From an uncultured Muribaculaceae bacterium (GTDB lineage: Bacteria > Bacillota_I > Bacilli_A > RF39 > UBA660), in the NCBI GenBank assembly GCA_964587565.1, contig CAZPLK010000001.1:120088-184087 (forward strand): DNA of 64,000 nt, given 5' to 3'. The notes under the pieces are model-generated. The model saw only the letters and a list, made by a program, of their open reading frames with translations, searched no databases and was not told the origin of the DNA. The stretch's first letter is position 1. Every line of letters begins with the position of its first letter. The position numbers and the translations under genes were made by a program. Positions 4,936-54,082 of this stretch are shown piece by piece.

Positions 4936-7272
4936 ATGAGTGATTATAAAACTGATATTAAAAAGGGATTAACTTCTTTAGAAGTTCAAAATAGGATTAT
5001 TAATAATAAAGTTAATTACGATTCTTCCCCACCTACCAAAACTATTTTGGAAATTATTAACACAAATTTATTTACTTTATTTAATTTGTTAAATTTTGGT
5101 TTAGCAGTAGCGGTTATATTAACAGGTTCATATAAAAACGCTACTTTTATGGGGGTTGTAATATGCAATACATTAATTGGTATATTACAAGAAATAAATG
5201 CAAAACGAATTACAGATAAACTATCTTTAATATCAGCATCAACGACAACTGTTATTAGAGATTCTTTAGAAAAGGAAATAGGATTAGATAATATAGTAAT
5301 TGATGACTTAGTAAAACTTAAAAGGGGTAATCAAATAATTTGTGATGCGATTATACTAGATGGAAATTGCGAAGTAGATGAATCGTTAATAACTGGTGAA
5401 TCAGATCCAATCTTTAAAAAGAAAGGTGAAAAAATTTTATCAGGTAGTTTTATTGTTAGTGGCAATATAAAAGCACAAGTAATTAATGTTGGTATGGATA
5501 ATTATAGTGCAAAAATAACAAAAGAAGCTAAAATAATGAAAAACAAAAAATCAGAATTAATGTATTCTCTTAATAAAATAATTAAATTAGTATCTATAGT
5601 TATTTTGCCCCTTGGAACTATTTTGTTTTTAAAGCAAATATCAATTGATAACAATAGTATTGAAAAAGCTGTTATTAATACAGTCGCAGCATTAATAGGG
5701 ATGATACCCGAGGGTTTAATATTGTTGACAAGCACAGTATTAGCAGTAAGCATTATTAGATTATCACGATATAAGGTTTTAATACAGCAACTTTATAGTG
5801 TTGAAACTTTAGCACGAATAAATACTATTTGTTTAGATAAAACAGGTACGTTAACAGATGGAAAAGTTGAATTTGTTAAATATAAGGAAATCAAAAAAAT
5901 AAATGAAATTGATTTGATTATATCGGCACTTGTTCACAATTTAGATTCAAACAATACAATATCAACTTTAAAAAAACACTATAATAAAAAGATAAATTGG
6001 CAAGTTGATAAAACAATTCAATTTTCATCTATAAGAAAATGGTCAGGAATTACCTTTGTGAATAAAGGCACTTATATTTTAGGAGCACCTGAATTTGTTA
6101 TTAAAAATGAATATAATAAAATTAAAAATATAGTTGATCATTATTCAAAAGATTATAGGGTATTAATTTTAGCTAAAAGTAATTATAGTTTTAAAGGCAA
6201 TGATTTGCCCAAAAACATAGAACCTTTAGGTCTAATTCTTTTGCAAGATGGTATTCGGAAAGAGGTTAGTGAAACATTAAAATATTTTAAAAAACAAAAT
6301 GTTGATATTAAAATAATATCTGGTGATAATGTTTTAACTGTTGCAAACATCGCTAAAAGATTAAATGTTGAAACAAAAAATAAATACATAGATGCCTCTT
6401 TACTCACAACTGATGAAAAACTTGAAACCGCAGTATTAAAATATGATATATTTGGACGTGTAAGTCCACAACAAAAGAAAAAAATGGTAGAAATACTACA
6501 AGCGAACAATAAAGTAGTTGGATTTGTAGGTGATGGTGTTAATGATGTATTAGCTTTGAAAAGTTCGGATTGTGGAATTGCTATGGCTAATGGAAGTGAT
6601 GCCGCAAAAAATGTATCAGAATTAATTTTGTTAGATTCTAATTTTGCAGCTATGCCTCATGTTGTTCAAGAAGGACGACGAACAATTAATAATATAGAAA
6701 GATCAGCAACACTTTTTTTAGTGAAGACTATATATTCAATGGTATTGGCAATCTTATTCTTATTTATTAATAGCCCATTTCCATTTGAACCAATTCAATT
6801 AAGTTTAACAAGCGTATTTACAATTGGAATCCCATCCTTTATATTAGCCATAGAACCTAACAACGATGAAATTAGTGGTAAGTTTTTAACTAACGTCATT
6901 AGTAAAGCTATGCCAACTGCTTTAACAAATGTTATTAATGTTATTTTAATTATGATAATAAGTAAGTTATTAAATTTTACATTTGAACAATCTTCAACAT
7001 TAGCAGTTATTTTAAGTGCCTTTGTTGGATTCATGTTATTATTTAAAATATCAACACCATTTAACACAGTTCGATTAGGATTAATGGTTTTTGGAATATC
7101 CGGATTTTTAATCGGTGTTTTAGGACTTCCCGACTTATTTTCCTTATCACAAATTACATTAACATTATGGGTTGTAATGCTTATTTTAATGTCGGTATCA
7201 ATATATAATTTTAATAAATTAACAACATTCTATTATAAATTAAAAAAGAAATATCCTAAATATTTAGATTAG
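4936..7272 (+). CDS. Cation-translocating P-type ATPase (P2-like; Ca2+/Mg2+ type likely)
   Basis: TGES (LITGESDP), phosphorylation motif CLDKTGTLT and hinge GDGVNDV. About 10 TM helices. No CPx metal motif seen. Confidence 0.8.
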   Translation: MSDYKTDIKKGLTSLEVQNRIINNKVNYDSSPPTKTILEIINTNLFTLFNLLNFGLAVAVILTGSYKNATFMGVVICNTLIGILQEINAKRITDKLSLISASTTTVIRDSLEKEIGLDNIVIDDLVKLKRGNQIICDAIILDGNCEVDESLITGESDPIFKKKGEKILSGSFIVSGNIKAQVINVGMDNYSAKITKEAKIMKNKKSELMYSLNKIIKLVSIVILPLGTILFLKQISIDNNSIEKAVINTVAALIGMIPEGLILLTSTVLAVSIIRLSRYKVLIQQLYSVETLARINTICLDKTGTLTDGKVEFVKYKEIKKINEIDLIISALVHNLDSNNTISTLKKHYNKKINWQVDKTIQFSSIRKWSGITFVNKGTYILGAPEFVIKNEYNKIKNIVDHYSKDYRVLILAKSNYSFKGNDLPKNIEPLGLILLQDGIRKEVSETLKYFKKQNVDIKIISGDNVLTVANIAKRLNVETKNKYIDASLLTTDEKLETAVLKYDIFGRVSPQQKKKMVEILQANNKVVGFVGDGVNDVLALKSSDCGIAMANGSDAAKNVSELILLDSNFAAMPHVVQEGRRTINNIERSATLFLVKTIYSMVLAILFLFINSPFPFEPIQLSLTSVFTIGIPSFILAIEPNNDEISGKFLTNVISKAMPTALTNVINVILIMIISKLLNFTFEQSSTLAVILSAFVGFMLLFKISTPFNTVRLGLMVFGISGFLIGVLGLPDLFSLSQITLTLWVVMLILMSVSIYNFNKLTTFYYKLKKKYPKYLD

Positions 7273-8123: not shown

Positions 8124-8146
8124 CAAACGTTGGTTCGTGATATAAT
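8124..8146 (+). promoter_or_regulatory. LexA (Cheo) box overlapping an extended -10 promoter of the polymerase gene
   Basis: CAAACGTTGGTTCG (8124-8137) reads CGAACCAACGTTTG on the other strand, i.e. GAAC-N4-GTTT. It is immediately followed by TGaTATAAT (8138-8146). Confidence 0.6.
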
Positions 8147-8161
8147 TTAAGTGGTGATAAG

Positions 8162-9355
8162 ATGAAAAGAATTATACTTCATATAGATGTTAACAATGCT
8201 TTTTTATCTTGGACTGCAGTATCATTATTAAAAAAAGGTTTTAAGTATGATATCCGCAACAGTTATGCTGTTATAGGTGGAGATGAGAAAAGGAGAGCCG
8301 GAGTAGTTTTAGCACGGTCAATTCCTAGTAAAAAAGCAGGTGTAATTACAGGAGAACCATTATATTTAGCACGTAAAAAATGCCCTGCATTAAAGTCATA
8401 TTCACCTAATTATAAATTGTACGATGAAATGTCAAAAAGTCTATTTAAATATTTAAGTAAATATACACCCGATATAGAAGTTTATTCAATAGATGAATGT
8501 TTTATTGATTATACAAAAGTGAAAAAATTATATGGTAATGAAATATTATTTGCTAACAATTTAAAAGAGCAAATAAAAAAAGAATTAGGTTTTACTGTTA
8601 ATATAGGAATTGGTAACAATAAATTATGTGCGAAAATGGCATCAGAATTTAAAAAACCTGATTTAGTGCACACATTATATGACTATGAGATACAAAAGAA
8701 ATTGTGGCCATTACCAATTGAAGAACTGTTTGGAATAGGTAAAAAAACTGCCCCTAAAATGAGACAATTAGGAATAAAAACAATTTATGACTTAGCACAT
8801 ACTGATTCTAGTTTTTTATACAAATATTTTAAAAATCAAGCAATTAAATATATTGAAAGTGCTAATGGAATAGATAATAGTGAAGTTATTAGTGAACCTA
8901 TTGAACCGAAAGGAATTAGTAATTCTGTAACGTTAGAGAGAGACTATACTAATAAATTAGAAATATATAAAGTGCTCAATAAATTAGCAGGAAATGTTTC
9001 AAAAAAGTTAAGAGAACAAAATAAATATGCGAGAGTAGTTGTAGTTATCATAAGAGACACTCACTTTAATAATAAAACACATCAACAAAAGTTAAATAAT
9101 GCGACTAATTTAACATTGGAAATTAGTAAAGTAGCTAGAAAATTATTTGATGAAGCGTGGAATAATAAGCCTATACGTTTACTAGGTATTAGGGTAGAAT
9201 CGTTAACTAATTGTTGTTCATATCAAATGTCTTTGTTTGAAGATATAAATAAACGTGATATAAAAATGAAACTAGAAGAAACAGTTGATGACTTAAATGA
9301 AAGATTCGGTGAAAAAATAATAAAAAGAGCTGCATTTGTTGAAACAAAAGAATAA
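8162..9355 (+). CDS. dinB: Y-family DNA polymerase (Pol IV / UvrX-like)
   Basis: N-terminal HIDVNNAF motif, catalytic SIDECFID, and a HhH region (GIGKKTAPKMRQLGIKT). Confidence 0.85.
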   Translation: MKRIILHIDVNNAFLSWTAVSLLKKGFKYDIRNSYAVIGGDEKRRAGVVLARSIPSKKAGVITGEPLYLARKKCPALKSYSPNYKLYDEMSKSLFKYLSKYTPDIEVYSIDECFIDYTKVKKLYGNEILFANNLKEQIKKELGFTVNIGIGNNKLCAKMASEFKKPDLVHTLYDYEIQKKLWPLPIEELFGIGKKTAPKMRQLGIKTIYDLAHTDSSFLYKYFKNQAIKYIESANGIDNSEVISEPIEPKGISNSVTLERDYTNKLEIYKVLNKLAGNVSKKLREQNKYARVVVVIIRDTHFNNKTHQQKLNNATNLTLEISKVARKLFDEAWNNKPIRLLGIRVESLTNCCSYQMSLFEDINKRDIKMKLEETVDDLNERFGEKIIKRAAFVETKE

Positions 9356-12399: not shown

Positions 12400-13563
12400 A
12401 TGAAAAGATTATTTGTAGTAATTATTATGTTTTTAATATTTATCTCTAATACATATTCATTAGAATTGTATAGTGAAAATATAGTTTTATATAATTTAAA
12501 TGATGATATTGTTATATTTGAAAATAAAAAAGATGAATTGACGAGTATAGCAAGCCTTACCAAAATAATGACTGTATTAGTTGCAATCGAAAACATAGAT
12601 AATATATATGAAGAAATTATTATTGATACTAACATGTTTGAAGGTTTAATAGAAGCTGATGCCGCAATTATGTATTTAAACGATGGAGAAAGGGTTACTT
12701 ATAAGGATTTACTTTACAGTACCCTTTTAGCAAGTGCTGCCGATGCAACTAGGGCACTTACTATTAATGTAGCAGGTAGTGAAAAAGAATTTGTTAAATT
12801 AATGAATAAAAGAGCAACTAAATTGGGCCTATCAAAAACTGTGTTTAAAAATCCAATTGGATTAGATGAAAAAGGTCAATATTCAACTGTTGATGATGTT
12901 GCCGTAATATTAAAAGAAGCACTTAGTAATAAGCTTTTTAAAGAAATATTTGAATGTAAACAATACTCGTTTGTAAACGGTACTAGGACAATACGCAGTA
13001 CAACTGCTTGGTATGATTCAGACATAATTAAAGGTTCAAAAACAGGATATACAGATGAAGCCGGTTTAGCACTTGCTAGCACCGCATATGATGAAGATAA
13101 TGATATACACTATTTGTTAATAACTACAAAAGCCCCAATAACTGAAAAAAGGTCATCACATATTTTAGATGCAATTAGCATTTACAATTATTATTTTGAC
13201 AATTATAAATACTATAATTTAATTGATAAAGGTGATAGTTTAATAGATTTAAATATTAAAAATAGTAAAATTAAAAGTATTAATTTAAAGTCAATTGAAG
13301 ATGTAAAATATTTTACGGATCATTCTTTTGATAAATCAAAAGTTGAATTAAAATATAATGGAAAAGAAGTTATAAAAGCACCAATAAAAGAAGGTAGTAA
13401 AATCGGGGTAATTGATATTTTTTATAATGGTGTTAAAGTTGATGAAGTAAATGCAGTAATTCAAGAAAAAATACCGCTATCATATTTACAATTTATTAAA
13501 AACAATATATTAGTTATTATTATAATAACTTTTGCGATTCAAAAATTAATGCCGAAAGGGTGA
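12400..13563 (+). CDS. Serine-type D-Ala-D-Ala carboxypeptidase (PBP5 family)
   Basis: Signal peptide, SxxK (SLTKIMT), SxN-like region, KTG (GSKTGYT), and a C-terminal membrane anchor. Confidence 0.8.
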   Translation: MKRLFVVIIMFLIFISNTYSLELYSENIVLYNLNDDIVIFENKKDELTSIASLTKIMTVLVAIENIDNIYEEIIIDTNMFEGLIEADAAIMYLNDGERVTYKDLLYSTLLASAADATRALTINVAGSEKEFVKLMNKRATKLGLSKTVFKNPIGLDEKGQYSTVDDVAVILKEALSNKLFKEIFECKQYSFVNGTRTIRSTTAWYDSDIIKGSKTGYTDEAGLALASTAYDEDNDIHYLLITTKAPITEKRSSHILDAISIYNYYFDNYKYYNLIDKGDSLIDLNIKNSKIKSINLKSIEDVKYFTDHSFDKSKVELKYNGKEVIKAPIKEGSKIGVIDIFYNGVKVDEVNAVIQEKIPLSYLQFIKNNILVIIIITFAIQKLMPKG

Positions 13564-13567
13564 TAAG

Positions 13568-15187
13568 ATGATTGAAGTAAATAATTTAAGTTTAGTTTTT
13601 CCTAACAAAAAACTTTTTGAAAATGTAAATTTAAAATTCTCATTAGGGAATTGTTATGGCGTTATTGGTGCTAATGGAGCGGGTAAATCAACATTTTTAA
13701 AAATATTAGCGGGTGAAATGGAACCAACAACAGGTAATGTTTATGTAGAACCTAATAATAGGATGGCTGTTTTAAAACAAAATCATTATGAGTTTGATGA
13801 ATACAATGTTATAGAAACAGTTATAATGGGACATAAACATCTTTACGATATTATGAAAGAAAGAGAAAAAATATATAGCAAAAATGAATTTACTGAAGCA
13901 GATGGAATTAAAGCTGGTGAACTAGAAATGGAATTTTCTGATTTAAATGGATGGGAAGCAGAATCAGAGGCCAGTCGCTTATTAAATAATTTGGGACTAA
14001 ATAGTCAGTTGTTTGATAAAAAAATGAATGAAATTGGTGGGAAAGAAAAAGTAAAAGTATTATTGGCACAAGCACTATTTGCTAATCCTGATATATTAAT
14101 AATGGATGAACCAACTAACCAACTTGATTTTAATGCGATAGCATGGTTAGAAGATTTTTTAATTGAATATGATAAAACTGTAATAGTCGTTTCCCATGAT
14201 AGGCACTTTTTAAATAAAGTATGTACCCATATGGTTGATATTGATTTTGGTTCTGCCAAATTATATCCTGGAAATTATGATTTTTGGTATCAATCTAGCC
14301 AACTAGCCCTTCAATTAGCGAAAGATGCTAACAAGAAAAAAGAAAAAAAGATCCAAGAACTAGAAGCTTTTATTGCACGTTTCAGTGCAAATGCTTCAAA
14401 ATCTAGACAAGCAACATCAAGAAAAAAGAGTTTAGAAAAAATTCAGTTAGAAGATATAAAACCTTCAAGTCGTAAATATCCTTATATTGGCTTTACTTTA
14501 AATAGAGAACTAGGTAAAGATATTTTAACTGTTGAAAACTTATCAAAGAACATTAATGGCGTTCAAGTGTTAAACAATATATCTTTTACAGTTAATAGAA
14601 ATGATAAAGTTGTAATTTTAGGTAGAGATGATTTTGTAAAAAGCATTTTACTTAAAATATTAGCGGGTGAAATGGAACCAGATTCAGGAACAATTAGATG
14701 GGGTACAACTGTTGAATATGATTACTTACCCCAAGATAATGATAGTTATTTTAATAATGAATTAAATTTAATTGAGTGGTTATCTCAATACTCTGATGAT
14801 CAATCAGAAAACTTTATTAGAAGTTTTTTAGGAAGAATGTTGTTTTCAGGAGAGGAAACTTTAAAAAAAGTAAAAGTTTTATCTGGCGGTGAAAAGGTAA
14901 GGTGTATGTTTTCAAAATTAATGATAAAAGGATCCAACTTTTTAATATTAGATCAACCAACTAATCACTTGGATTTGGAATCGATTCAAGCTGTAAATGA
15001 TGGTTTAATTAATTATAAAGGTTCAATTATATTTACATCTCATGATCATAACTTTGTTAATACAACAGCAAATAAAATTGTCGAAATCACGCCATCAGGA
15101 GCATTTTATACAGAAATGAAGTTTAGTGATTATTTAAAAGATGAAAAAATACAAAAAAGAATTAATAAAATGTATGAAATAAAATAA
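13568..15187 (+). CDS. ABC-F family ATPase (YbiT/YkpA-like) with a degenerate second ATP site
   Basis: Two NBDs with no TM domain and an inter-domain Lys-rich linker. NBD1 has GANGAGKST / IMDEPT. NBD2 has GRDDFVKS / ILDQPT. Confidence 0.85.
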   Translation: MIEVNNLSLVFPNKKLFENVNLKFSLGNCYGVIGANGAGKSTFLKILAGEMEPTTGNVYVEPNNRMAVLKQNHYEFDEYNVIETVIMGHKHLYDIMKEREKIYSKNEFTEADGIKAGELEMEFSDLNGWEAESEASRLLNNLGLNSQLFDKKMNEIGGKEKVKVLLAQALFANPDILIMDEPTNQLDFNAIAWLEDFLIEYDKTVIVVSHDRHFLNKVCTHMVDIDFGSAKLYPGNYDFWYQSSQLALQLAKDANKKKEKKIQELEAFIARFSANASKSRQATSRKKSLEKIQLEDIKPSSRKYPYIGFTLNRELGKDILTVENLSKNINGVQVLNNISFTVNRNDKVVILGRDDFVKSILLKILAGEMEPDSGTIRWGTTVEYDYLPQDNDSYFNNELNLIEWLSQYSDDQSENFIRSFLGRMLFSGEETLKKVKVLSGGEKVRCMFSKLMIKGSNFLILDQPTNHLDLESIQAVNDGLINYKGSIIFTSHDHNFVNTTANKIVEITPSGAFYTEMKFSDYLKDEKIQKRINKMYEIK

Positions 15188-19705: not shown

Positions 19706-20401
19706 ATGAAAAAGATAAAATATTTGATTACAGTATTATGTTTATCAGTAGTACTTACAGGTTGCTTAGGAGTAGATGTTGATATAACTGTTAAGAATGA
19801 TGATACAGGGAAGATTACTTTTAAAACTGGTTATGAAGAATCGTATTTAAAAGAATTAGACGAAAAAAAAGACGACGTTAAACTGGATATTAATAGTGAT
19901 ATGGAATTAGATATACCGTATGAAGATGCTGTTGCAAAGGATGTTACTTTTACCAAAGGAGATAACAACTATATTGGGAAAGAAGTAACAGTTGAATTTA
20001 ATTCTTTAGAACAATTAACTGAAAGATTCAATGAATTGTTTGAGTCTGAAGAAGAAAATAAAATGAAAAATACAACTTTTACACGAGAAGGAAATAAAGT
20101 AATTGTACATCAAGAAGCAAATGAAGAGTATTATGAAGAAAGTAAAATGATGTTTAACTATGTAGATTACACAATTAAATTTAATATAGATGGCAAAATA
20201 TTAAGTAATAATGCCGATAAATTTAATGAAGATGATAATACATTAGAATGGGATATTAAAACAGTATTGAAAAATGGTATACAATTTGAATACACTACAA
20301 GTAAAAGCAATATAATTAAACCAATATATATTATTGGAGCAGTAACACTTATTGTAGCAATTGGTGTTCCGATTGTAATTTTCAAACGAAAAGATGATTA
20401 A
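19706..20401 (+). CDS. Lipoprotein of unknown function with a C-terminal TM anchor
   Basis: Lipobox VLTGC after a hydrophobic signal, an acidic body, and a C-terminal helix (IIGAVTLIVAIGVPIVIF). Confidence 0.6.
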   Translation: MKKIKYLITVLCLSVVLTGCLGVDVDITVKNDDTGKITFKTGYEESYLKELDEKKDDVKLDINSDMELDIPYEDAVAKDVTFTKGDNNYIGKEVTVEFNSLEQLTERFNELFESEEENKMKNTTFTREGNKVIVHQEANEEYYEESKMMFNYVDYTIKFNIDGKILSNNADKFNEDDNTLEWDIKTVLKNGIQFEYTTSKSNIIKPIYIIGAVTLIVAIGVPIVIFKRKDD

Positions 20402-20439
20402 ATTTGATATTTATACAAAATTTGTTATAATAATATTAT

Positions 20440-20636
20440 AAAAAAAACAATGACGAAGAAATAGTAATAAATGTAATTATTTAAAGAGAGCTAGTGGCTG
20501 GTGTAAACTAGTAATAATTGTTTTATGAATTCACCTTCTAGTTTTTTCGGTAACGCGTTATAGTTTTGAGAGCATAAACACATGAATTAAGGTGGTACCG
20601 CGAGCATTCGTCCTTAAATATTAAGGACTTTTTTTA
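20440..20636 (+). promoter_or_regulatory. T-box leader (Phe specifier) controlling pheST
   Basis: Lies downstream of TGtTATAAT (20423-20431). AGAGAG bulge, GGUGUAA distal loop, UUC-A specifier (20530-20533), T-box AATTAAGGTGGTACCGCG (20586-20603). Terminator GTCCTTAA/TTAAGGAC plus T7 (20610-20635). Confidence 0.9.
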
Positions 20637-20649
20637 TTGGAGGGATATA

Positions 20650-21711
20650 ATGGAAGAAAATGTAAAATTGTTAAAAGACGAAATAAAAGATGAAATAAAA
20701 GAAGTTAAAAACATAAAACAATTAAATGATTTAAGAGTAAGATTTTTGGGTAAAAAAGGTAAAATTCATGAGTTAGGTAATTTAATGAAAACAATTGAAA
20801 AAGAGAAAAAACGGGATGCGGGAATTTTATTAAATAAATGTAGAAATTATATTGAAACTATAATTTCTGAAAAACAAGAAAATTTAGAAAATCAATTAAT
20901 GATACAAAAATTAAATGAAGAGTGGATTGATATTACACTACCAAGTACAAAAATAAAAGTTGGTACAATCCACCCTTTAACAAAAATAGTTGATGAAATA
21001 GAAGAATTGTTTGTAAGTATGGGCTATGATGTTGTAGAGGGTCCAGAAATTGAAAGTGATTTATATAATTTTGAAAAACTAAATTTGCCCAAAGACCATC
21101 CAGCGCGTGATATGCAAGATAGTTTTTATATAACAAAAGAAATGTTATTAAGAACTCAAACATCACCAGTTCAAGCTAGAGTAATGGATTCAAATATAGA
21201 AAAAGGTCCAATTAGAATAATTTGCCCAGGGAAAGTATATAGAAAAGATGAGGACGACATGACACACTCTCATCAATTTACTCAAATAGAAGGTTTAGTA
21301 ATAGATGAAGGAATAAGTGTCGCACATTTAAAAGGTACTTTAGAAATACTTGTTAAAAAAATGTTTGGTAATAATTTGGAAATAAGATATAGACCAAGTT
21401 ATTTCCCATTTACTGAACCTAGTTTAGAAGTTGATGTCTCATGTTTTAAATGTAATGGCAAAGGCTGTTCAATATGTAAAAGAACTGGTTGGATTGAAAT
21501 TCTCGGTTCTGGTATGGTACATCCAAATGTATTAAGAGCATGTGGTTATGATCCTAACAAATACAGTGGCTTTGCATTTGGAATGGGACCAGAGCGAATT
21601 GCAATGCTTAAATATGGAGTTAATGACATAAGGCATTTTTATACAAATCATATAGATTTCTTAAACAATTTTGATAAACTTGAAAAGGAGGATATGAATG
21701 AAACTAAGTAA
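20650..21711 (+). CDS. pheS: Phenylalanine-tRNA ligase alpha subunit
   Basis: [11 protein letters not shown], class II motifs (FRxD-like [21 protein letters not shown]), and operon context with pheT. Confidence 0.95.
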
Positions 21712-38365: not shown

Positions 38366-41089
38366 ATGGAATATAAAGATACTTTATTAATGCCAAAAAC
38401 TGAATTTAAAATGAGGGGTAATTTACCAGTTAATGAAAAAATTCAAAGTGAAAAATGGGAAAAAATACAATTATATAATAAAATTATGCACAAAAATGAA
38501 CAAGGTGAACTATTTGTACTACATGATGGACCACCGTATGCTAATGGGGATATTCATATAGGACATGCACTTAACAAAATTTTAAAAGATTTTATTAATA
38601 GATATAAGATGCTAGAAGGATATAAAGTTGTTTATATACCTGGTTGGGATGTTCATGGTTTGCCAATTGAAACAGCAGTAACAAATACAGGTATAAATAG
38701 AAAAGAAATGAATAAAACTGATTTCAGAAAACTTTGTGAAAGTTATGCTAAGAAACAAATTGAAAATCAAAAATTACAATTTAAAGCATTAAATGTAATA
38801 GGAGATTTTGAAAATCCATATATTACAATGTCAAAAGAATATGAAGCAAAACAAATAGAAGTATTTGCAGAAATGGCAAAAAAGGGTCTTATCTTCAAAG
38901 GTTTGCGCCCAGTATATTGGAGTCCAAGTAGTGAATCAGCTTTAGCTGAAGCCGAAATAGAATATAAAGATAGAAGGGATGCGTCTCTTTATGTAACATT
39001 TCCTATTGTTCATGGTAATGAATATGTAGATGAAGGAGATAATTTAGTAATTTGGACAACAACAGCATGGACATTGCCTGGAAATTTAGGTATAGCAGTA
39101 AATAGAGATATTGAATATGCAAAAGTTAGTGCAAATAATAAAAATTATATTATCGCAAAAGAATTACTAAATAAATTAAGTGAATTATTTGATTGGGGAA
39201 AATATGAAATATTACAAACATTTTTAGGAAGTGAACTTGAAAATGTTAAATATAGACATGTTTTTATGGACCGTATATCACCTGTAATATTAGGGGAGCA
39301 TGTCACTATTGAAGCGGGAACAGGATTAGTTCATATTGCACCTGGTTATGGAGCAGAAGATTTTGAAGTAGGCAAAAAATATAACTTAGGTATGATAAAT
39401 GGTGTTAATGATCAAGGTGTATTAAATGAACAATCTGGAAAATACAAAGGTTTATATTTTGAAAAAGCTAATAAAGTAATAGCGGATGATTTGGATAATA
39501 CTGGTCATTTATTAAAGTTAGAAATGATTACGCACTCTTATCCACATGATTGGCGAACAAAAGGACCTGTAATATTTAGGGCAACATCACAATGGTTTTG
39601 CAGTATTGATAAAATACGCGAACAACTATTAGATGAAATCCAAAACAATGTTAACTGGTTGCCTGAGTGGGGTCAATTAAGAATGCATAATATGATCAAA
39701 GATAGAGGTGATTGGTGCATATCACGTCAAAGAGTTTGGGGCGTTCCAATACCTATATTTTATAACGAAGATGGCAGTGAAATAATTGATTATGATGTTA
39801 TGATGCATATTGCTAAATTATTTAAAAAGCATGGCTCAAATATTTGGTTTTCTAAATCTGCAAAAGAATTATTACCACAAGGTTATTCTAATCCAGCAAG
39901 TCCAAATGGTGAATTTAAAAAAGAAGAGGATATTATGGATGTTTGGTTTGATTCTGGTTCTAGTCACACTGGAGTTTTAATAAATCGTAATTTAAATTAT
40001 CCAGCAGATATATATATAGAAGGATCAGATCAATATCGTGGTTGGTTTAACTCATCATTAATTTGTGGTGTTTCTGTTCACGGAAAAGCACCATATAAAA
40101 AAGTTATATCTCATGGGTTTGTATTAGATGGAAAAGGTCATAAAATGAGCAAAAGCTTAGGAAATGTTATTGATCCATTAAAAATGATAAAAAGAGATGG
40201 TTCTGACATATTAAGGCTTTGGGTAGCGAGTGTTGATTATAAAGAAGATGTAAGAATTAGTGATAACTTGATTAATCAAGTAAAAGAAAGCTATCGTAAA
40301 ATTAGAAATACCTATCGCTTTATGTTAGGAAATTTATTTGATTTTGATCCAAATACAAATAAAATAGAATTTAATAACATGCCATATTATGATCAATATA
40401 TAATGGTGAAACTAAATGAACTTATTAAAGATATAAAAAATGCATATGAACAATATAACTTTCAAGAAGTATATAGATTATCTAATAATTTTATTACATT
40501 TATGTTATCTAACTTTTATTTGGATTTTACTAAAGATATTTTATATATTGAAAAACAAGATAGTTTAAAAAGACGTAGTGTCCAAACAGTGCTATATGAA
40601 ACGTTAAGTTCTTTAATAAGATTATTAGCACCTATATTACCTTATACGAGTGAAGAAGTATACGCCTTAATGCCTAGTCCAAAATTAGAAAGTGTTCATT
40701 TAGAAAATAATCCTATTGTTAAAAATTATGCGAATAGTGAGGAAATATTGAAAGAATGGAAAATATTTTTTGATATTAAAGATGATGTTTATAAAGCATT
40801 AGAAGAAGCTAGAAACGAAAAATTAATTGGTAAAGGATTAGAAGCAAAGGTGTATATTAATGCTTCGGGAAAACATTTAGAAATTATTGAAAAAATAAAA
40901 GACGATTTAAAATTATTACTAATTGTATCTGAAGTAGTTATTACAGATGAATCATTAAAAAAATATGACACAATAGGCGTTAGGGTTGAACGTTTTGAAG
41001 GTGAAAAATGTGAAAGATGTTGGAATTATTTTACTGATGACAATATGGTAAAAGAAATTTGCAAGCGCTGTTTTGAGGTGATAAATTAA
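38366..41089 (+). CDS. ileS: Isoleucine-tRNA ligase
   Basis: ATG 38366 follows an AAGGAGAG SD; the track start at 38300 lies inside the T-box. HIGH (GDIHIGHALNK), KMSKS, and a C-terminal zinc motif (CERC...CKRC). Confidence 0.95.
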   Translation: MEYKDTLLMPKTEFKMRGNLPVNEKIQSEKWEKIQLYNKIMHKNEQGELFVLHDGPPYANGDIHIGHALNKILKDFINRYKMLEGYKVVYIPGWDVHGLPIETAVTNTGINRKEMNKTDFRKLCESYAKKQIENQKLQFKALNVIGDFENPYITMSKEYEAKQIEVFAEMAKKGLIFKGLRPVYWSPSSESALAEAEIEYKDRRDASLYVTFPIVHGNEYVDEGDNLVIWTTTAWTLPGNLGIAVNRDIEYAKVSANNKNYIIAKELLNKLSELFDWGKYEILQTFLGSELENVKYRHVFMDRISPVILGEHVTIEAGTGLVHIAPGYGAEDFEVGKKYNLGMINGVNDQGVLNEQSGKYKGLYFEKANKVIADDLDNTGHLLKLEMITHSYPHDWRTKGPVIFRATSQWFCSIDKIREQLLDEIQNNVNWLPEWGQLRMHNMIKDRGDWCISRQRVWGVPIPIFYNEDGSEIIDYDVMMHIAKLFKKHGSNIWFSKSAKELLPQGYSNPASPNGEFKKEEDIMDVWFDSGSSHTGVLINRNLNYPADIYIEGSDQYRGWFNSSLICGVSVHGKAPYKKVISHGFVLDGKGHKMSKSLGNVIDPLKMIKRDGSDILRLWVASVDYKEDVRISDNLINQVKESYRKIRNTYRFMLGNLFDFDPNTNKIEFNNMPYYDQYIMVKLNELIKDIKNAYEQYNFQEVYRLSNNFITFMLSNFYLDFTKDILYIEKQDSLKRRSVQTVLYETLSSLIRLLAPILPYTSEEVYALMPSPKLESVHLENNPIVKNYANSEEILKEWKIFFDIKDDVYKALEEARNEKLIGKGLEAKVYINASGKHLEIIEKIKDDLKLLLIVSEVVITDESLKKYDTIGVRVERFEGEKCERCWNYFTDDNMVKEICKRCFEVIN

Positions 41090-41117
41090 AAAGTATATTT
41101 AAAATATACTTTTTTTG
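41088..41117 (+). terminator. Rho-independent terminator after ileS
   Basis: AAAGTATATTT / AAATATACTTT palindrome followed by a T run. Confidence 0.6.
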
Positions 41118-41155
41118 TCAAATTGTGTTATAATTTAATATATAGGAGTGACTTA

Positions 41156-42205
41156 ATGATGTGTAATAATAAAGGATTTACATTAATCGAATTATTAGCA
41201 GTAATAGTAATACTTGCAATCATCATGTTAATCACAACACCAACAGTATTAAATATAATAGAAAATGCAAGGGTCGAATCATTTAAAACATCCGTTTATG
41301 GAATAATAAACACTGTTGAACAAAGTTATGCCAAAGAAACTCTAACAAAATCTTTTCCAACGGTAGTAACATACATATATAAAAATGGGAAAGAGATATC
41401 TAGTAATAAAAAGGAGTTAAAATTTAAAGGCAAAAAACCTGAATCAGGAATGATTATAATAAATAATAATGGTGTAGTTTCATTAGCTTTATACAATAGA
41501 GTATATTGCGCAGTTAAAGATAGTACAACTAACGAGGTAGAGGTTGAAAAAACATCAAGTTCAGAGTGTGAGTTATCATATCCATGTGGGACTGATTTAT
41601 TTGATTTTCGGGATGGGGAATTATATAGAACACTAAAAATAGGAGATCAGTGTTGGATGGCCGAAGATTTAAGATATGATTGCTCCAAATCCGGGTATAA
41701 CAATATTGGTTCCGCAAATAGTTGGAGTGGAAGTAATAATTGTGGTGATGGCGAATATAATACAATTTTATACCAGTGGCCAGTTGCTATGGATGGAAGT
41801 ACAGAAGAGAGTTCACAGGGCTTATGTCCAAGTGGTTGGCATATACCTAGTGATGATGAGTGGAAAAAGTTGGAACAACATCTAGGTATGACAGTGGACG
41901 AAGTTAATAAACCAGATTGGAGAGGTAATGATCAAGGTGATCAATTAAAATCCCTTCAATATAATTGGTGTTTAGAAGCAAACAGTTGTGGCACTTCGGG
42001 ATTCGACGCTATGCCAGTGGGCGGAAGGCAAATAGATGGTAAGTTTTATAATGTAGATTCAACTAGTTATTGGTGGACATCCACCATTTCAGATACATCA
42101 GCCTGGGTAAGACGAATTAATAATATAAATACTAATATTTATAGAAACAATCCAACCCAATTGTATGGTAGAGGAGTGCGTTGCATTATAAATATAAATA
42201 ATTAA
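41156..42205 (+). CDS. Type IV pilin-like protein fused to a FISUMP (TIGR02145-like) lectin-fold domain
   Basis: Own TGtTATAAT promoter (41126-41134). Class III signal MMCNNKG|FTLIELLAVIVILAII with Glu at +5. C-terminal FRDGELYRTLKIGDQCWMAEDL...CPSGWHIPSDDEWKKL...YWWTST...GRGVRCI matches the Fibrobacter succinogenes major paralogous domain pattern. Confidence 0.75.
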   Translation: MMCNNKGFTLIELLAVIVILAIIMLITTPTVLNIIENARVESFKTSVYGIINTVEQSYAKETLTKSFPTVVTYIYKNGKEISSNKKELKFKGKKPESGMIIINNNGVVSLALYNRVYCAVKDSTTNEVEVEKTSSSECELSYPCGTDLFDFRDGELYRTLKIGDQCWMAEDLRYDCSKSGYNNIGSANSWSGSNNCGDGEYNTILYQWPVAMDGSTEESSQGLCPSGWHIPSDDEWKKLEQHLGMTVDEVNKPDWRGNDQGDQLKSLQYNWCLEANSCGTSGFDAMPVGGRQIDGKFYNVDSTSYWWTSTISDTSAWVRRINNINTNIYRNNPTQLYGRGVRCIININN

Positions 42206-42287
42206 ATGTTCCACATAATTACTTTTTGTAAATGTATAATAATAATTTATTGTGTTTAATGAAAAAAACTATATTTAATAATTACAA

Positions 42288-42326
42288 TAAACCAAGTGAA
42301 ATAATTTCATTTGGTTTATTTTTTTT
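42288..42326 (+). terminator. Rho-independent terminator
   Basis: AAACCAAGTGAAA / TTTCATTTGGTTT stem (one G-U pair) followed by aT9. Confidence 0.7.
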
Positions 42327-42424
42327 CAAACATTATTAATAATATGGTTTTTTATCAATATATTAAAAATTTATTTACATTTATTTTAATACGTAATTAC
42401 ATATAATCTAATAGGAGTGATTTT

Positions 42425-49437: not shown

Positions 49438-49479
49438 AAATGTAAATATGCTTTAAAAATGATTTTAAATGGTGATAAT

Positions 49480-52344
49480 ATGAAGAAAAATAATAAAAAA
49501 GCATTTACATTAGTAGAGTTATTAGCAGTAATATTTATTATTGGCATTTTATCTGTAATTACTATACCTACCATTAACAAATTAACTTTGCAAAGTAAAG
49601 AACAATTATATAAAAATCAAATAGATAACATAAAACATGGTGCTAAAAACTGGGCTGCTAGTAATTTTTACATGTTGCCAGAAAGTGAAGGAGAACAAAT
49701 TACACTTACATTAGGACAGTTACAAATAGGAGGATTTGTTGCATCTGATATTAAAGATCCGAGAAATAAAAAACCATTTCCAAGAGATATGGAAATAATA
49801 ATCAAAAGAATTATGAATAGTTATCGCTATGAAGTAATAGAAGGTAGTGGTGGTGAAAATGGTAACTTAGATTTTGATTCTCCAACTATAATTTTAAATG
49901 GTTCAGCTCATGAAATTGTGGAAATTAATACAAATTATGTTGAAAAAGGTGCACTAGCAAAAGATCCAAGTGGTAGTCTAATAGATGATATTAATATTTT
50001 AATTCAATCTAACAATAAAGAAGTAGATAAAGTAGATACTAGTAAATTAGTACAATATAAAATAACTTATAGTGCTGTTTATAATAATAATACGGCAACT
50101 GCAATAAGAACAGTTACTATTAAAGATACAATACCCCCGAATTTAAATGTACCTGGTAATATAATAATATCATCCGATGAGGTATTAAATTACGATTTTA
50201 TGGAAGGGGTTAGTGCAACAGATAACTCTCTTGAAAATGTAAATATTACAATAAAAGGAACAGTAAGTGTACTTCCAGGAAAGTACTTGCTAACTTATAT
50301 TGCGACAGATTCATCTTCCAATAAAACAGAAAAAACAAGGCACATTACAGTAGTAAGTGCTACATATCCAACAATATCAATAATAGGTAGTAGTATAGTA
50401 AATATAAATGTGGAAGAACCATATAAAGACATGGGAGCAACTGCTAGTGATTTATTAGATGGTGATTTAACTAATAAAATTATTGTTAGTGGTACAGTTA
50501 ATGTTAATATACCTGGAAATTATAATATTACTTATGAAGTTACTAATAGCATAGGTAAAACTACAACTGTAATAAGGGAAGTAAAAGTAATTGATAATAT
50601 ACCACCTGTTATAGTTTTTGGGACAAATGGAAACAGTACTTATGCAAGAAATTATAATACCAAAATAACAGTAAATGATATACATTCATTGGTAAATAAA
50701 AATTCACTAAAATATTTATGGTCAACAACTACTACAACTCCTAGTGAAAGTTCTTTTACTAATAAATTCACAAGTGGTGATATAATATCAACGCCAAATG
50801 ATTTAAGTGGTAGTTATTATTTATGGATAATAGCAAAAGACACCGTTGGGAATACTGCAATTAAAAGAACAAATGCATTTAACTTGGATAATACTAATCC
50901 TAGTGTTACAAACATAGTTAGTAATGTAACAAATATAACAGAAACAGGTTTTACTATAACAAGAAGCGGAAATGCAACTGATGCCCATAGTGGATTAGCT
51001 AGCATTCCATATATGTATCAAATAAGTACAAACAATGTAAGTTGGATTACAAATTGTACTAGTAGTGCTACAACTTGTGTTGTAACTGGGTTAGACCTTG
51101 AAACAAAATACTATTATAGAATATGTGCATCGGATAAAGTTGGTAATCAATCGTGTGTAGCAAGTAAAAACACTACAACCGAAGGCGGTGATTATAGTAT
51201 TGTTAAAAACGTTAACAGACCAGTATTGTTGCCAGGTATGACGCCAATTAAATGGAATGGTATGACAGAGGTGATTACTACTACAAATGATACATCTTGG
51301 TATGATTATACTAATAAAATGTGGGCTAATGCAAAAACAAAAGACGGATCTTATTGGGTGTGGGTACCAAGATATGCATATCAAATTTCAAGTGGTTATC
51401 ATACTAAAAGTGCTGGTAATATAAATATAAAATTTTTACAAGGTAATACTAATGTTGCATCTGATAATACAACAGTGGCAACAACCCCTACTTATAGTGG
51501 TTCTAGGCAAACTAATTATATAAGACATCCCGCTTTCCAATTTGGAACAGAAGAAATCCTAGGATTTTGGGTAGCAAAATTCGAACCAAGTGGTACTTTA
51601 AGCAATATAAATATTTTACCAAACGCATCAACATTAACAAATATAAATGTTAAAGATATGTTTAATGCAAGTTTAAATATGAAATCCAATTCAAAGTATG
51701 GTTGGGGTACCAATACTGTTGATACCCACATGGCTAAAAATACAGAATGGGGAGCAATAGCTTATTTAAGTAAATCCATATATGGGGCGAATAGTGAAGT
51801 GTGGATTAATAATAGTAACAATTATACGACTGGTTGTGCTGGAAGTAGTATATCAGCTAGTAGTTATTCTGGTTGTCAAAACGCTTATAATACAACAATT
51901 GGTGTTAGAGCTAGTACAACACATAATATATATGGTGTGTACGATATGAGTGGTGGCGCGAATGAATATGTAACAGGAAATTTAAATCGTACAACAGCAA
52001 GTAGTGGTTTTTCTATAACTGAACTTAGAGGAATAGATTCAAAGTATATTGATGTATATAGTGGTTATAATAGTACGATATTTGGTGATGCTATTTATGA
52101 AACGAGTTTAACTCAAAAAATGAGTGATTTTGGCAATGCTAACAAATTAAATGAATCATGGCACAATCAGAGATCAACTTTAATCGGTACTTATAGTATA
52201 GCTGGAAGAAGTATATCAGCACCATGGTATATTAGAGGTGATGATTATGCGGGGAGAGAATTAGCAGGATTATTTTCATTTAGACCCGATGCTGGAAATG
52301 CTTCATCAAGTTATTCTTTTAGACCAATAGCAATACCTCAATAA
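49480..52344 (+). CDS. 954-aa modular type IV pilin-like protein (pilin module, 3 Ig-like DUF5011-type repeats, Fn3-like domain, FGE/SUMF1-like lectin-fold domain)
   Basis: ATG 49480 follows a GGTGA SD. Class III signal MKKNNKKA|FTLVELLAVIFIIGIL. Repeats of the P.I.L.G....pY.d.Ga.A.D..dG.l...I...G.V....pG.Y.itY...D..gN pattern, DxHSGL Fn3-like segment. The C-terminus has GFWVAKFEPS...NTEWGAIAYL...GVYDMSGGANEYV...WYIRGDD...SFRP. Confidence 0.7.
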   Translation: MKKNNKKAFTLVELLAVIFIIGILSVITIPTINKLTLQSKEQLYKNQIDNIKHGAKNWAASNFYMLPESEGEQITLTLGQLQIGGFVASDIKDPRNKKPFPRDMEIIIKRIMNSYRYEVIEGSGGENGNLDFDSPTIILNGSAHEIVEINTNYVEKGALAKDPSGSLIDDINILIQSNNKEVDKVDTSKLVQYKITYSAVYNNNTATAIRTVTIKDTIPPNLNVPGNIIISSDEVLNYDFMEGVSATDNSLENVNITIKGTVSVLPGKYLLTYIATDSSSNKTEKTRHITVVSATYPTISIIGSSIVNINVEEPYKDMGATASDLLDGDLTNKIIVSGTVNVNIPGNYNITYEVTNSIGKTTTVIREVKVIDNIPPVIVFGTNGNSTYARNYNTKITVNDIHSLVNKNSLKYLWSTTTTTPSESSFTNKFTSGDIISTPNDLSGSYYLWIIAKDTVGNTAIKRTNAFNLDNTNPSVTNIVSNVTNITETGFTITRSGNATDAHSGLASIPYMYQISTNNVSWITNCTSSATTCVVTGLDLETKYYYRICASDKVGNQSCVASKNTTTEGGDYSIVKNVNRPVLLPGMTPIKWNGMTEVITTTNDTSWYDYTNKMWANAKTKDGSYWVWVPRYAYQISSGYHTKSAGNINIKFLQGNTNVASDNTTVATTPTYSGSRQTNYIRHPAFQFGTEEILGFWVAKFEPSGTLSNINILPNASTLTNINVKDMFNASLNMKSNSKYGWGTNTVDTHMAKNTEWGAIAYLSKSIYGANSEVWINNSNNYTTGCAGSSISASSYSGCQNAYNTTIGVRASTTHNIYGVYDMSGGANEYVTGNLNRTTASSGFSITELRGIDSKYIDVYSGYNSTIFGDAIYETSLTQKMSDFGNANKLNESWHNQRSTLIGTYSIAGRSISAPWYIRGDDYAGRELAGLFSFRPDAGNASSSYSFRPIAIPQ

Positions 52345-52417: not shown

Positions 52418-54082
52418 ATGATTCAAAATAAAAACAAAGGTTTTACATTGATCGAATTATTAAGTGTAATTGTAGTTTTTGTTATTATAATGCTTATAGT
52501 AAGTCCAGTAGTTATAAACATAATAAAAAGTGCTAATAAAGGTGCTTTTAAAAACAGTGTTAACGGGATAGTGAAAAGTGCTATATTAGAACAATCTAAA
52601 AATGTATTAACCGGTAAAGAAGTGAATGAACTTATTTTTACATATGAAAACGGTGTTGAAAAATCAAATATTATTGGGGCAAAACTTAATTATAAAGGTA
52701 AAAGTCCAAGTGAAGGTGTTATTATTGTCAATAAAAAAGGACAAGTTTCACTTGCTCTTTTCGATTCAATGTGTGCTATTAAATCATTCGAAGGCAATGT
52801 GGAAATTAAACCAAATAGTAAAGAAGATTGTCAATTAAAATTATTAATACCTACTATTGAATTAATTGGAAATAATACAATAGATATAGAAATAAATACT
52901 AAATATGAAGAACTAGGTGTAATTGCAAAAAAATATAACGGAGATGTTATTAAAAATGTTGATATTAAAATTAAATATAATGGCATAATACAAAAAACTG
53001 TTGATACTAGTAAATTAGGAACATATGAATTAATATATTCAGTACAAGAAGATAATCAAAGGGTAGAGATATTAAGAATTATACATATTGTAGATACAAT
53101 CCCTCCTGTTTTAAACATTCCAAAAGATATAGTTATTGACATCAAAAATTTTAATGATTTTGATTTTATGGATGGTGTTAGTGCCACGGATAATAGCAAT
53201 GAAAAAATTAATATAATTACAACTAGTAACATTGTTCCAATACCAGGTAATTATTATATTAAATATGAAGCATTTGATTCATCAGGGAACAAAACGGAAA
53301 AGATAAGGCAAATTAACATAATAGATACAACACCACCTAATATAAATAAATTAGTTATATCAACTAAAAATGTAACATCTAATTCATTTGTCATTATAAT
53401 GGAAGGAGAAGTTTTTGACGAACACAGTGACTTAGCACAAAAACCATTTATTTATCAAACAAGTACTGATAACGTTAATTGGCAAACAAAATGTACAACA
53501 AGTAATAAAGATTGTTTAGTTGAAAATTTAAATAATAACACAACATATTATTACCGTTTATGTGTCATAGATATATATGATAATAAAGCGTGTTCTAATA
53601 ATAAAAGTATAACAACTAGTAATCCGCTTTATTACTACGATAAATATAGGGTAGGTATTAATTACTATAATTACCGAAATCCTTCATCAAATTTTTCTTA
53701 TAGTTATACAACATCTGAAAAATCATTATCAAGTGGTAGTACCATATCAATTGCAGGTACAACGAGTTATGGTTTTAATAGTACATCTGGTTTTTATGGT
53801 ACTGGCTCATCTGTAACATTGACTCAATCAACAATTTCAAACGGATATACTAGATACTATGCAAGCGGAAGTTCAATTTCACAACATAAAATAGTTAATA
53901 AAAGAACATCAGGCTCAACAGTATATTGGAAAGAAGAAGTTTATGTTATGAGTTGTCAATATGATACAAGTTATACGAGAGGAGCGTTTATAGAAACTGT
54001 GACAGCTATTACTGGTCAGTATCCTAATAACGGTAGACATACAGATGGTTATTGGTATGTCAGAAGAGAATTGGTTAGTTAA
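52418..54082 (+). CDS. 554-aa modular type IV pilin-like protein (pilin module, 2 Ig-like repeats, Fn3-like domain, Tyr/Ser/Gly-rich C-terminal domain)
   Basis: Class III signal MIQNKNKG|FTLIELLSVIVVFVII. The pilin module is paralogous to 41156-42205 (LNYKGKSPSEGVIIVNKKGQVSLALF vs LKFKGKKPESGMIIINNNGVVSLALY). The Ig/Fn3 part is paralogous to 49480-52344 (DFMDGVSATDNS / DFMEGVSATDNS). Confidence 0.7.
   Translation: MIQNKNKGFTLIELLSVIVVFVIIMLIVSPVVINIIKSANKGAFKNSVNGIVKSAILEQSKNVLTGKEVNELIFTYENGVEKSNIIGAKLNYKGKSPSEGVIIVNKKGQVSLALFDSMCAIKSFEGNVEIKPNSKEDCQLKLLIPTIELIGNNTIDIEINTKYEELGVIAKKYNGDVIKNVDIKIKYNGIIQKTVDTSKLGTYELIYSVQEDNQRVEILRIIHIVDTIPPVLNIPKDIVIDIKNFNDFDFMDGVSATDNSNEKINIITTSNIVPIPGNYYIKYEAFDSSGNKTEKIRQINIIDTTPPNINKLVISTKNVTSNSFVIIMEGEVFDEHSDLAQKPFIYQTSTDNVNWQTKCTTSNKDCLVENLNNNTTYYYRLCVIDIYDNKACSNNKSITTSNPLYYYDKYRVGINYYNYRNPSSNFSYSYTTSEKSLSSGSTISIAGTTSYGFNSTSGFYGTGSSVTLTQSTISNGYTRYYASGSSISQHKIVNKRTSGSTVYWKEEVYVMSCQYDTSYTRGAFIETVTAITGQYPNNGRHTDGYWYVRRELVS

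Follow-up and report, generated by a model that had tools for sequence, protein, structure and literature searches.

A type IV pilin with a FISUMP head in a reduced-genome member of the Bacilli: a probable minor pilus adhesin of a catalogued modular class

Introduction

What is the task of a protein that starts as a type IV prepilin and ends in a domain normally found in the lipoproteins of Fibrobacter and Bacteroidota? The question is raised by a single gene in a stretch of 64,000 nucleotides from an uncultured bacterium (NCBI GenBank assembly GCA_964587565.1, contig CAZPLK010000001.1, positions 120,088 to 184,087 of the forward strand), hereafter the window, to which all coordinates given without a contig refer. 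The gene (41156..42205, plus strand) is an uninterrupted open reading frame (ORF) of 349 codons plus a stop, and its product, P0001, joins a prepilin N-terminus and a small pilin module to a Fibrobacter succinogenes major paralogous (FISUMP) domain. We find that this fusion is real, but its design has been catalogued and is common in small-genome bacteria, and P0001 is an unremarkable example of it.

As to its function, we read P0001 as a minor type IV pilin adhesin, which would be processed by a PilD-like peptidase, assembled by the machinery encoded on another contig of the same genome (C5) into filaments made of a small major pilin, and would expose, probably from the tip of the filament, a head of lectin type for binding a ligand. 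We give this reading a probability of roughly 0.7. It draws on the domain content of the protein, its conservation, the machinery of the genome, the mosaic history of the gene and the targeting of its homologues by diversity-generating retroelements (DGRs), all of which we observed.

Results

Both halves of the protein are recognised by curated profiles, each scoring above its cut-off. At the N-terminus these are PF07963 (N_methyl; E 2e-8, 33.9 bits for a cut-off of 21.2, residues 2-27) and TIGR02532 (E 9.2e-8, 31.6 bits for a cut-off of 16.3). The C-terminal part is matched by PF09603 (Fib_succ_major; E 5.7e-33, 115.2 bits for a cut-off of 33.9), over residues 161-344 (41636-42187) and positions 2-186 of the 187 in the profile, and by TIGR02145 (E 6.3e-32, 111.7 bits for a cut-off of 41.65). 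The prepilin-FISUMP fusion had been proposed in a first-pass annotation made from the sequence alone, and the profile searches suggested there, with TIGR02145 and PF07963, thus bear it out. The strings that it quoted are likewise all found in the translation: the G preceding FTLIELLAVIVILAII, YCAVK (with Cys118), SSSEC (with Cys138), FRDGELYRTLKIGDQCWMAEDL, LYQW, CPSGWHIPSDDEWKKLEQHLG, GFDAMPVGGR, YWWTST and GRGVRCI.

The N-terminus reads MMCNNKG followed by FTLIELLAVIVILAIIMLITTP, which is a short leader ending in Gly, then Phe at +1, Glu at +5 and a hydrophobic helix. The leader (41156..41176, plus strand) has the character of a class III (prepilin) signal, with cleavage predicted after Gly7 from the two N-terminal profiles and from conservation. 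In 42 full-length homologues, little or no variation is seen at G7, F8, T9, L10 and E12, and Phe8 and Glu12 are invariant.

The pilin module that follows (residues 8-141; 41177..41578, plus strand) is made up of a small beta-sheet preceded by the alpha1 helix, an assignment based on an AlphaFold2 model, on identity to a stand-alone pilin and on a sequence profile search of the PDB. The full-length model, built on the alignment of the 42 homologues, has a predicted local distance difference test score (pLDDT) of 91.1 and a predicted template modelling score (pTM) of 0.79; it lays out a helix (residues 10-64), strands (71-132), a short linker and a separate head, the pilin fold being predicted with a pLDDT of about 90. 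Two cysteines, Cys118 and Cys138 (41507-41509 and 41567-41569, plus strand), form a probable disulfide pair: both are present in 32 of the homologues, neither in 7 and only one in 3, a co-occurrence in keeping with a disulfide by which the pilin module would be closed. The pilin-like module with a D-region-like cysteine pair that had been read from the sequence therefore stands, with a length of about 134 residues. The PDB profile search with P0001 returned type IV pilins only, through their N-terminal helices (Streptococcus sanguinis PilE1, 3e-10), and no solved FISUMP relative.

In the source genome (G000) a stand-alone pilin of 140 residues (C2:4718-5140) shows 49% identity to the module and has the same cysteine pair; it may reasonably be considered as a candidate major subunit. 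The nearest relatives of the module, none more than 49% identical, carry varied heads: no head at all, LRR_5, DUF285 or Laminin_G_3.

The FISUMP head occupies residues 142-349 (41579..42202, plus strand; PF09603 and TIGR02145). Of its cysteines, C224 and C343 are invariant among the homologues, and C166 and C196 are found in 41 of the 42, a conservation that suggests disulfides formed outside the cell. The likeness to the FISUMP lipoproteins of Fibrobacter and Bacteroidota (TIGR02145) extends over the full-length domain, including the conserved C166, C196, C224 and C343. However, the usual lipoprotein signal of those proteins is replaced here by the prepilin signal and the pilin module; no lipobox is found in P0001. 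Since two domains and a long helix make the full-length model a poor query for Foldseek, the head was predicted again alone, with a pLDDT of 95.6 and a pTM of 0.91. Among predicted viral structures, this head model matches phage FISUMP-domain proteins, with E-values of 2.5e-11 and 4e-8; its matches to DUF1566 proteins are weaker.

These families have been linked before to DGRs. Fib_succ_major, DUF1566 and DUF823 together make up target category 'd' of Wu et al. 2018 (PMC5758913), with a variable region of the CLec2 class. The head of P0001 belongs to the same domain family as these category 'd' proteins, of which Legionella pneumophila LdtA is an example, but LdtA is a lipoprotein whereas the window protein is a pilin. 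Furthermore, in contrast to category 'd' targets, the window gene has neither a matching template repeat nor an adjacent reverse transcriptase, Avd or MutS-like (MSL) gene.

Are close relatives of P0001 rewritten by such elements? The only reverse transcriptase gene of G000 (RVT_1; C13:12303-12998, minus strand) is part of a complete DGR (C13:12303-14731), in which the template repeat (13253-13435) and the variable region (14505-14687) differ by 18 mismatches, all 18 at template adenines. The variable region forms the C-terminus of a FISUMP protein that is broken off at the contig end. The local GC content of this DGR is 52%, in a genome of 27% GC. At the edge of a second contig (C11:2-529, minus strand) lies the 5' half of a prepilin-FISUMP gene, whose 176 residues are 39% identical to residues 4-167 of P0001. 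This fragment comprises the prepilin, the pilin module and the first FISUMP residues, and it leaves its contig in a direction compatible with the C13 fragment; the C11 start and the C13 end are the only other FISUMP fragments in the G000 assembly. Because the C11 fragment is the only other one and its direction is compatible, the target of the C13 DGR is probably a second pilin-FISUMP gene, split over the two contigs, with about 110 codons unassembled. The genes flanking the two fragments do not confirm the join, that on C11 having an ABC transporter gene and rpoC as its neighbours.

Independent support for a pilin-FISUMP target comes from a related genome of 1.0 Mb (G038), which holds two near-identical DGR cassettes (C1:64500-71500 and C1:300000-306500). 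They are composed of the target, a MutS-like gene, Avd (in the second cassette), the template repeat and a reverse transcriptase of 401 residues, and both targets are prepilin-FISUMP proteins (368 and 433 residues), the second of them frameshifted within its variable region. A synteny of the C13 DGR with the G038 cassette that adjoins rplQ and rpoA, which would have linked C11 to C13, was considered and rejected, as both genes lie in the middle of contig C4 in G000 and the C11 fragment has other neighbours. In all, G038 has 16 FISUMP matches, among them pilin-FISUMP genes in tandem arrays of four (C4:12971-17348).

The same association is found for P0008, one of the closest full-length homologues (46% identity to P0001 over both modules), which is itself a DGR target. 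Its locus (GCA_001513565.1, LFRM01222666.1, 6001-9566) reads rbfA, pilin-FISUMP gene, MutS_I, bAvd, template repeat and reverse transcriptase, and 13 of the 15 mismatches between its variable region (6849-7030) and its template repeat (8145-8326) are at template adenines, the other 2 at thymines. No DGR was found near P0011 and P0003. Roux et al. 2021 do not mention pilins, and in the literature that we searched DGR-rewritten type IV pilins are the subject of passing mentions only.

Residues 286-346 of P0001 (42011..42193, plus strand) align with the variable regions of the C13 target and of P0008, and with those in G038, and are thus the segment equivalent to the one that DGRs rewrite in paralogues. 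Sequence entropy of the head among homologues peaks within it, at residues 318-337, and the segment of residues 286-346 is likely to be the ligand-contact surface.

The machinery that a pilin would need is encoded in G000, a genome of 1.01 Mb in 43 contigs (27% GC, 90.8% complete) whose relatives are uncultured Bacilli of 0.6-1.6 Mb. One A24 prepilin peptidase (PF01478), three T2SSE-family ATPases (PF00437) and T2SSF platform proteins (PF00482) score above their cut-offs. A cluster on contig C5 (18869-22970) brings together a PilB-like (452 residues), a PilD-like (259 residues; 20261-21040) and a PilC-like protein (637 residues), and the same locus also holds two small pilin-like genes and a pilin of 1096 residues. 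Apart from this cluster, a Tad-like one (C2:13341-17656) encodes a CpaE/ParA-like protein, a TadA-like ATPase of 445 residues and two T2SSF-type proteins, one of which has an N-terminal Ig-like extension. Prepilin-type N-termini number 15 genome-wide, many of them on proteins of 500-1600 residues.

How did the head come to sit on this pilin? In a congeneric genome (G025), ileS and the sigma-factor gene that flank the window gene are separated by 48 bp with no gene between them, and the window gene is on this evidence an accessory insertion. G025 has its pilin-FISUMP gene elsewhere (C91:1495-2232), behind yceD-rpmF. The N-terminal half of its FISUMP domain is 66% identical to that of the window protein, and its pilin module shows 62% identity to a stand-alone pilin of 128 residues in G000 (C1:115094-115483). 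P0014 is arranged like the G025 gene, with a FISUMP head on the pilin of the yceD-rpmF locus. At this locus, then, the pilins are orthologous but for the head, which has clearly been acquired or shed. Within the window gene the GC content is 37% in the FISUMP part and 28% in the pilin part. Since the two modules have different nearest relatives, the gene arose by module shuffling; the history of the head is not that of its carrier, which is what one would expect under the 'grafting' model of modular pilins. In a second congeneric genome (G009), contig C90 ends precisely where the sigma-factor gene begins, the site that the window gene occupies in G000, and there may be a variable or repeated gene at this break.

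The first-pass annotation had also known of no described pilin-FISUMP fusion, and the novelty that this implied did not stand. PF09603 and PF07963 are found together, with full-length coverage and 31-53% identity, in about 55 of the 120 best relatives drawn from a database of 5.8 billion proteins. Dozens of database proteins have this architecture and bear automatic labels that already describe it, 'TIGR02145 family / prepilin-type N-terminal cleavage/methylation domain' at JGI and 'FISUMP domain-containing protein [Bacilli bacterium]' at NCBI. The InterPro entry IPR011871 is, we presume, that of Fib_succ_major. In the catalogue that Raynaud et al. 2021 drew up from InterPro (PMC8179133, Dataset S1, Fig. 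8), the combination IPR012902-IPR011871 is the fifth most frequent modular-pilin architecture, with 40 proteins, a representative from Candidatus Wolfebacteria and an extra domain described as having 'no clear function'. P0001 falls within the definition of a modular pilin given by these authors. The claim of novelty falls because the architecture is common and already annotated, an outcome that the annotation itself had named as refuting it.

What differs is the host: the published examples mostly occur in the Candidate Phyla Radiation (CPR/Patescibacteria), whereas the window gene belongs to a lineage of Bacilli with genomes of about 1 Mb. Across the order, P0001 finds a match in 196 of 201 genomes, mostly through the pilin module alone, and the FISUMP head is found in four of those 201, namely G000, G025, G033 and G038. 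A search of contigs for related loci returned mostly FISUMP-only proteins of Bacteroidota. We found no experimental characterisation of any pilin-FISUMP member in the literature searched.

The contig that carries the gene is 221 kb long, and the gene is in its middle part, between ileS and the sigma-factor gene; it is monocistronic, with its own terminator. A ribosome-binding site, AGGAG (41144..41148, plus strand), precedes the ATG at 41156 by 7 nt and the ATG at 41159 by 10 nt. The public gene call (P0002, 348 residues) starts one codon downstream of ours and is identical to P0001 apart from the start codon. A TTG start at 41123, which would give an ORF of 360 residues, was dropped: the ATG codons at 41156 and 41159, of which one or the other was preferred, are served by the ribosome-binding site and give a leader of the normal 6-7 residues. 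A strong intrinsic terminator with a 16-bp stem (42286-42320), a 3-nt loop and a T run (42286..42330 as a whole, plus strand) was correctly anticipated from the sequence; it is the sole one in the region, where shuffled sequences lead to an expectation of 0.3. An extended -10 promoter had been assigned to the gene as well. The element TGTTATAAT is indeed there (41126..41134, plus strand), 3' of an AT-only hairpin behind ileS (about 41089-41116). However, its function as a promoter did not find the same support, as no usable or recognisable -35 accompanies it and a scan for two-hexamer promoters made no call there; we regard it as a candidate and plausible promoter of the window gene.

Two paralogous modular pilins are encoded further along the window. 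The first (49459..52344, plus strand; 961 residues) has an N_methyl domain and three Bact_surface_Ig-like domains, and in the second (52418..54082, plus strand; 554 residues) Ig-like domains follow a pilin module that belongs to the class of the P0001 module, with 45% identity across residues 4-142. Giant prepilin-type proteins with bacterial Ig-like repeats (554, 689, 961, 1096 and 1599 residues) take up much coding space in G000. Besides the pair in the window they are found at C2:67256-74268 and C5:12325-15615, the protein of 1096 residues having a Cys-rich tail.

Discussion

How would a protein built in this way work? We propose that the alpha1 helix would insert the prepilin in the membrane, where the A24 peptidase would cleave after Gly7 and methylate Phe8, as suggested by the motif and by the presence of the enzyme. 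The PilB-like ATPase and the PilC-like platform protein of the C5 locus would then polymerise P0001 into a filament consisting mainly of the small major pilin. Because its head of 208 residues is bulky, P0001 would be a subunit of low abundance, probably located at the filament tip, by analogy with PilB and PilC of Streptococcus sanguinis. From there the head may bind a ligand on the host, on a particle or on a neighbouring cell, through its last 60 or so residues, the very stretch that is subject to DGR rewriting in paralogues and close homologues. A glycan or a protein could serve as the ligand, and the window copy would be a version of fixed specificity.

The S. sanguinis proteins PilB, with a vWA module, and PilC, with a concanavalin-A-like lectin module (Raynaud et al. 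2021, PMC8179133; Shahin et al. 2023, PMC9934059), are the closest parallel. They share with P0001 a monoderm host, a short leader, a small pilin module, a short linker and a bulky binding module that folds independently, and they too are predicted minor tip adhesins. On the other hand, the head of P0001 is FISUMP rather than vWA or ConA-like, and its gene is an orphan outside any pil locus. A second parallel, in concept, is provided by the DGR-diversified tip adhesins of type V pili in Bacteroides (bioRxiv 10.1101/2024.11.15.621889), in which a head of lectin fold (presumed in P0001) is also borne by a pilus and is also hypermutable by DGRs in relatives. However, these belong to another pilus class, assembled by chaperone-free strand exchange, and have an unrelated carrier domain.

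Several points weigh against the reading of P0001 as a minor pilus adhesin. The first concern its structure. Searched with Foldseek against the PDB, the head model has no match at E ≤ 0.001, the best being the C-terminal domain of Legionella Lcl (E 0.05), and the full-length model has nothing significant, the best being Clostridioides difficile PilW (E 0.45). The sequence contains none of the EPN, QPD and WND motifs, which are the canonical Ca2+ and sugar-binding motifs of true C-type lectins. The weak PDB matches of the head, none at the above threshold, are nearly all C-type-lectin-like domains; as no solved structure matches significantly, the assignment of a C-type-lectin fold draws on the literature and on the DGR targeting of homologues. 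The other points concern the machinery. The window gene does not adjoin any pilus locus, the ATPase of C5 is small by the standards of PilB proteins, and the pilin may be handled by either of two secretion-ATPase systems, that of C5 or the Tad-like one of C2. Finally, it is by inference that we attribute to P0001 its processing, its assembly into a filament, its tip location and its role in adhesion.

The most serious alternative is that the protein is displayed at the surface with no pilus involved, its class III signal only serving to export the lectin head and to anchor it in the membrane or on a short stub. The archaeal 'bindosome', in which sugar-binding proteins carry prepilin-type signals, offers a precedent. 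Several of the 15 prepilin-type genes of G000 encode products of 500-1600 residues, which would be awkward in a filament shaft, the window gene stands alone at a distance from the machinery genes, and organisms with genomes of about 1 Mb need many surface binding proteins. Against this stands the completeness of the pilin module, with its alpha1 helix, Glu5, beta-sheet and probable C-terminal disulfide and its resemblance to the stand-alone pilin of 140 residues, and bulky modular pilins of S. sanguinis do enter real pili (PMC8179133). We consider surface display without a pilus distinctly less probable than a role as a minor pilus adhesin.

Alternatively, P0001 could be a subunit of a Com or type II secretion-like pseudopilus, its head capturing DNA or a substrate rather than adhering. 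What speaks for this is a weak N-terminal similarity to GspG, ComGC, ComGD and ComGE. However, the scores are far under their cut-offs (29.7 bits against 88.85 for GspG, TIGR01710; 28.8 against 75 for ComGC, NF040999) and both of these matches cover residues 6-56 only, that is, the shared alpha1 helix; the ComGD and ComGE models likewise have sub-threshold similarity to P0001 in the N-terminal helix only. We know of no link between FISUMP domains and DNA binding, and being a DGR target, as the homologues are, is typical of ligand-binding adhesins and receptors. A pseudopilus subunit is on these grounds improbable.

Could the window gene itself be under active rewriting by a DGR, with the C13 retroelement acting on it in trans? 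The DGR of G000 is intact, its variable region is the homologous C-terminal FISUMP segment, and P0001 is rich in Asn at the equivalent positions. However, Asn richness is to be expected in a genome of 27% GC. The C13 template repeat has no blastn match in the window gene (word size 7), and local alignment gives at best a poor match with gaps; moreover, the gene has an AT-rich 3' end, devoid of the GC-rich conserved end of true variable regions. The absence of DNA similarity to the only template repeat of G000 leads us to reject the window gene as a variable protein of this DGR, and rewriting in trans is very unlikely. Because no template repeat matches it, the window copy looks like a fixed, non-variable version.

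That the gene would be an assembly chimera or a decaying pseudogene, with halves that are unrelated or unexpressed, is hardly credible: the assembly is of metagenome type with its 43 contigs, and the FISUMP half exceeds the pilin half in GC content, but the ORF is intact well inside a long contig, with a ribosome-binding site before it and a terminator behind it, the same junction and the conserved cysteines recur in over 40 full-length homologues, which come from independent samples, and the two-domain model is confident.

Returning to P0001 as a minor pilus adhesin, a broader and more speculative picture can be drawn for its lineage. The pilin-FISUMP genes could constitute an evolvable 'grappling hook', in which one and the same lectin head travels between unrelated pilin scaffolds and between loci and is repeatedly captured by DGRs, yielding type IV pili whose tips are hypervariable. 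The window gene could then be a recently inserted and frozen derivative of a DGR-written head, kept for a useful specificity. We put this forward tentatively, and think it somewhat more doubtful than probable.

In conclusion, the window gene is one more member of a modular pilin class that has been catalogued and is experimentally untouched, and it shows reduced-genome Bacilli, too, making use of a design mainly known from CPR bacteria. Alongside the C13 DGR and the relatives of P0001 described here, it offers a natural comparison between a fixed lectin-headed pilin and hypermutable ones. Being small (349 residues) and confidently modelled, P0001 is a candidate for learning what FISUMP heads bind, and this question bears on the FISUMP lipoproteins of gut Bacteroidota and on the biology of DGR targets.

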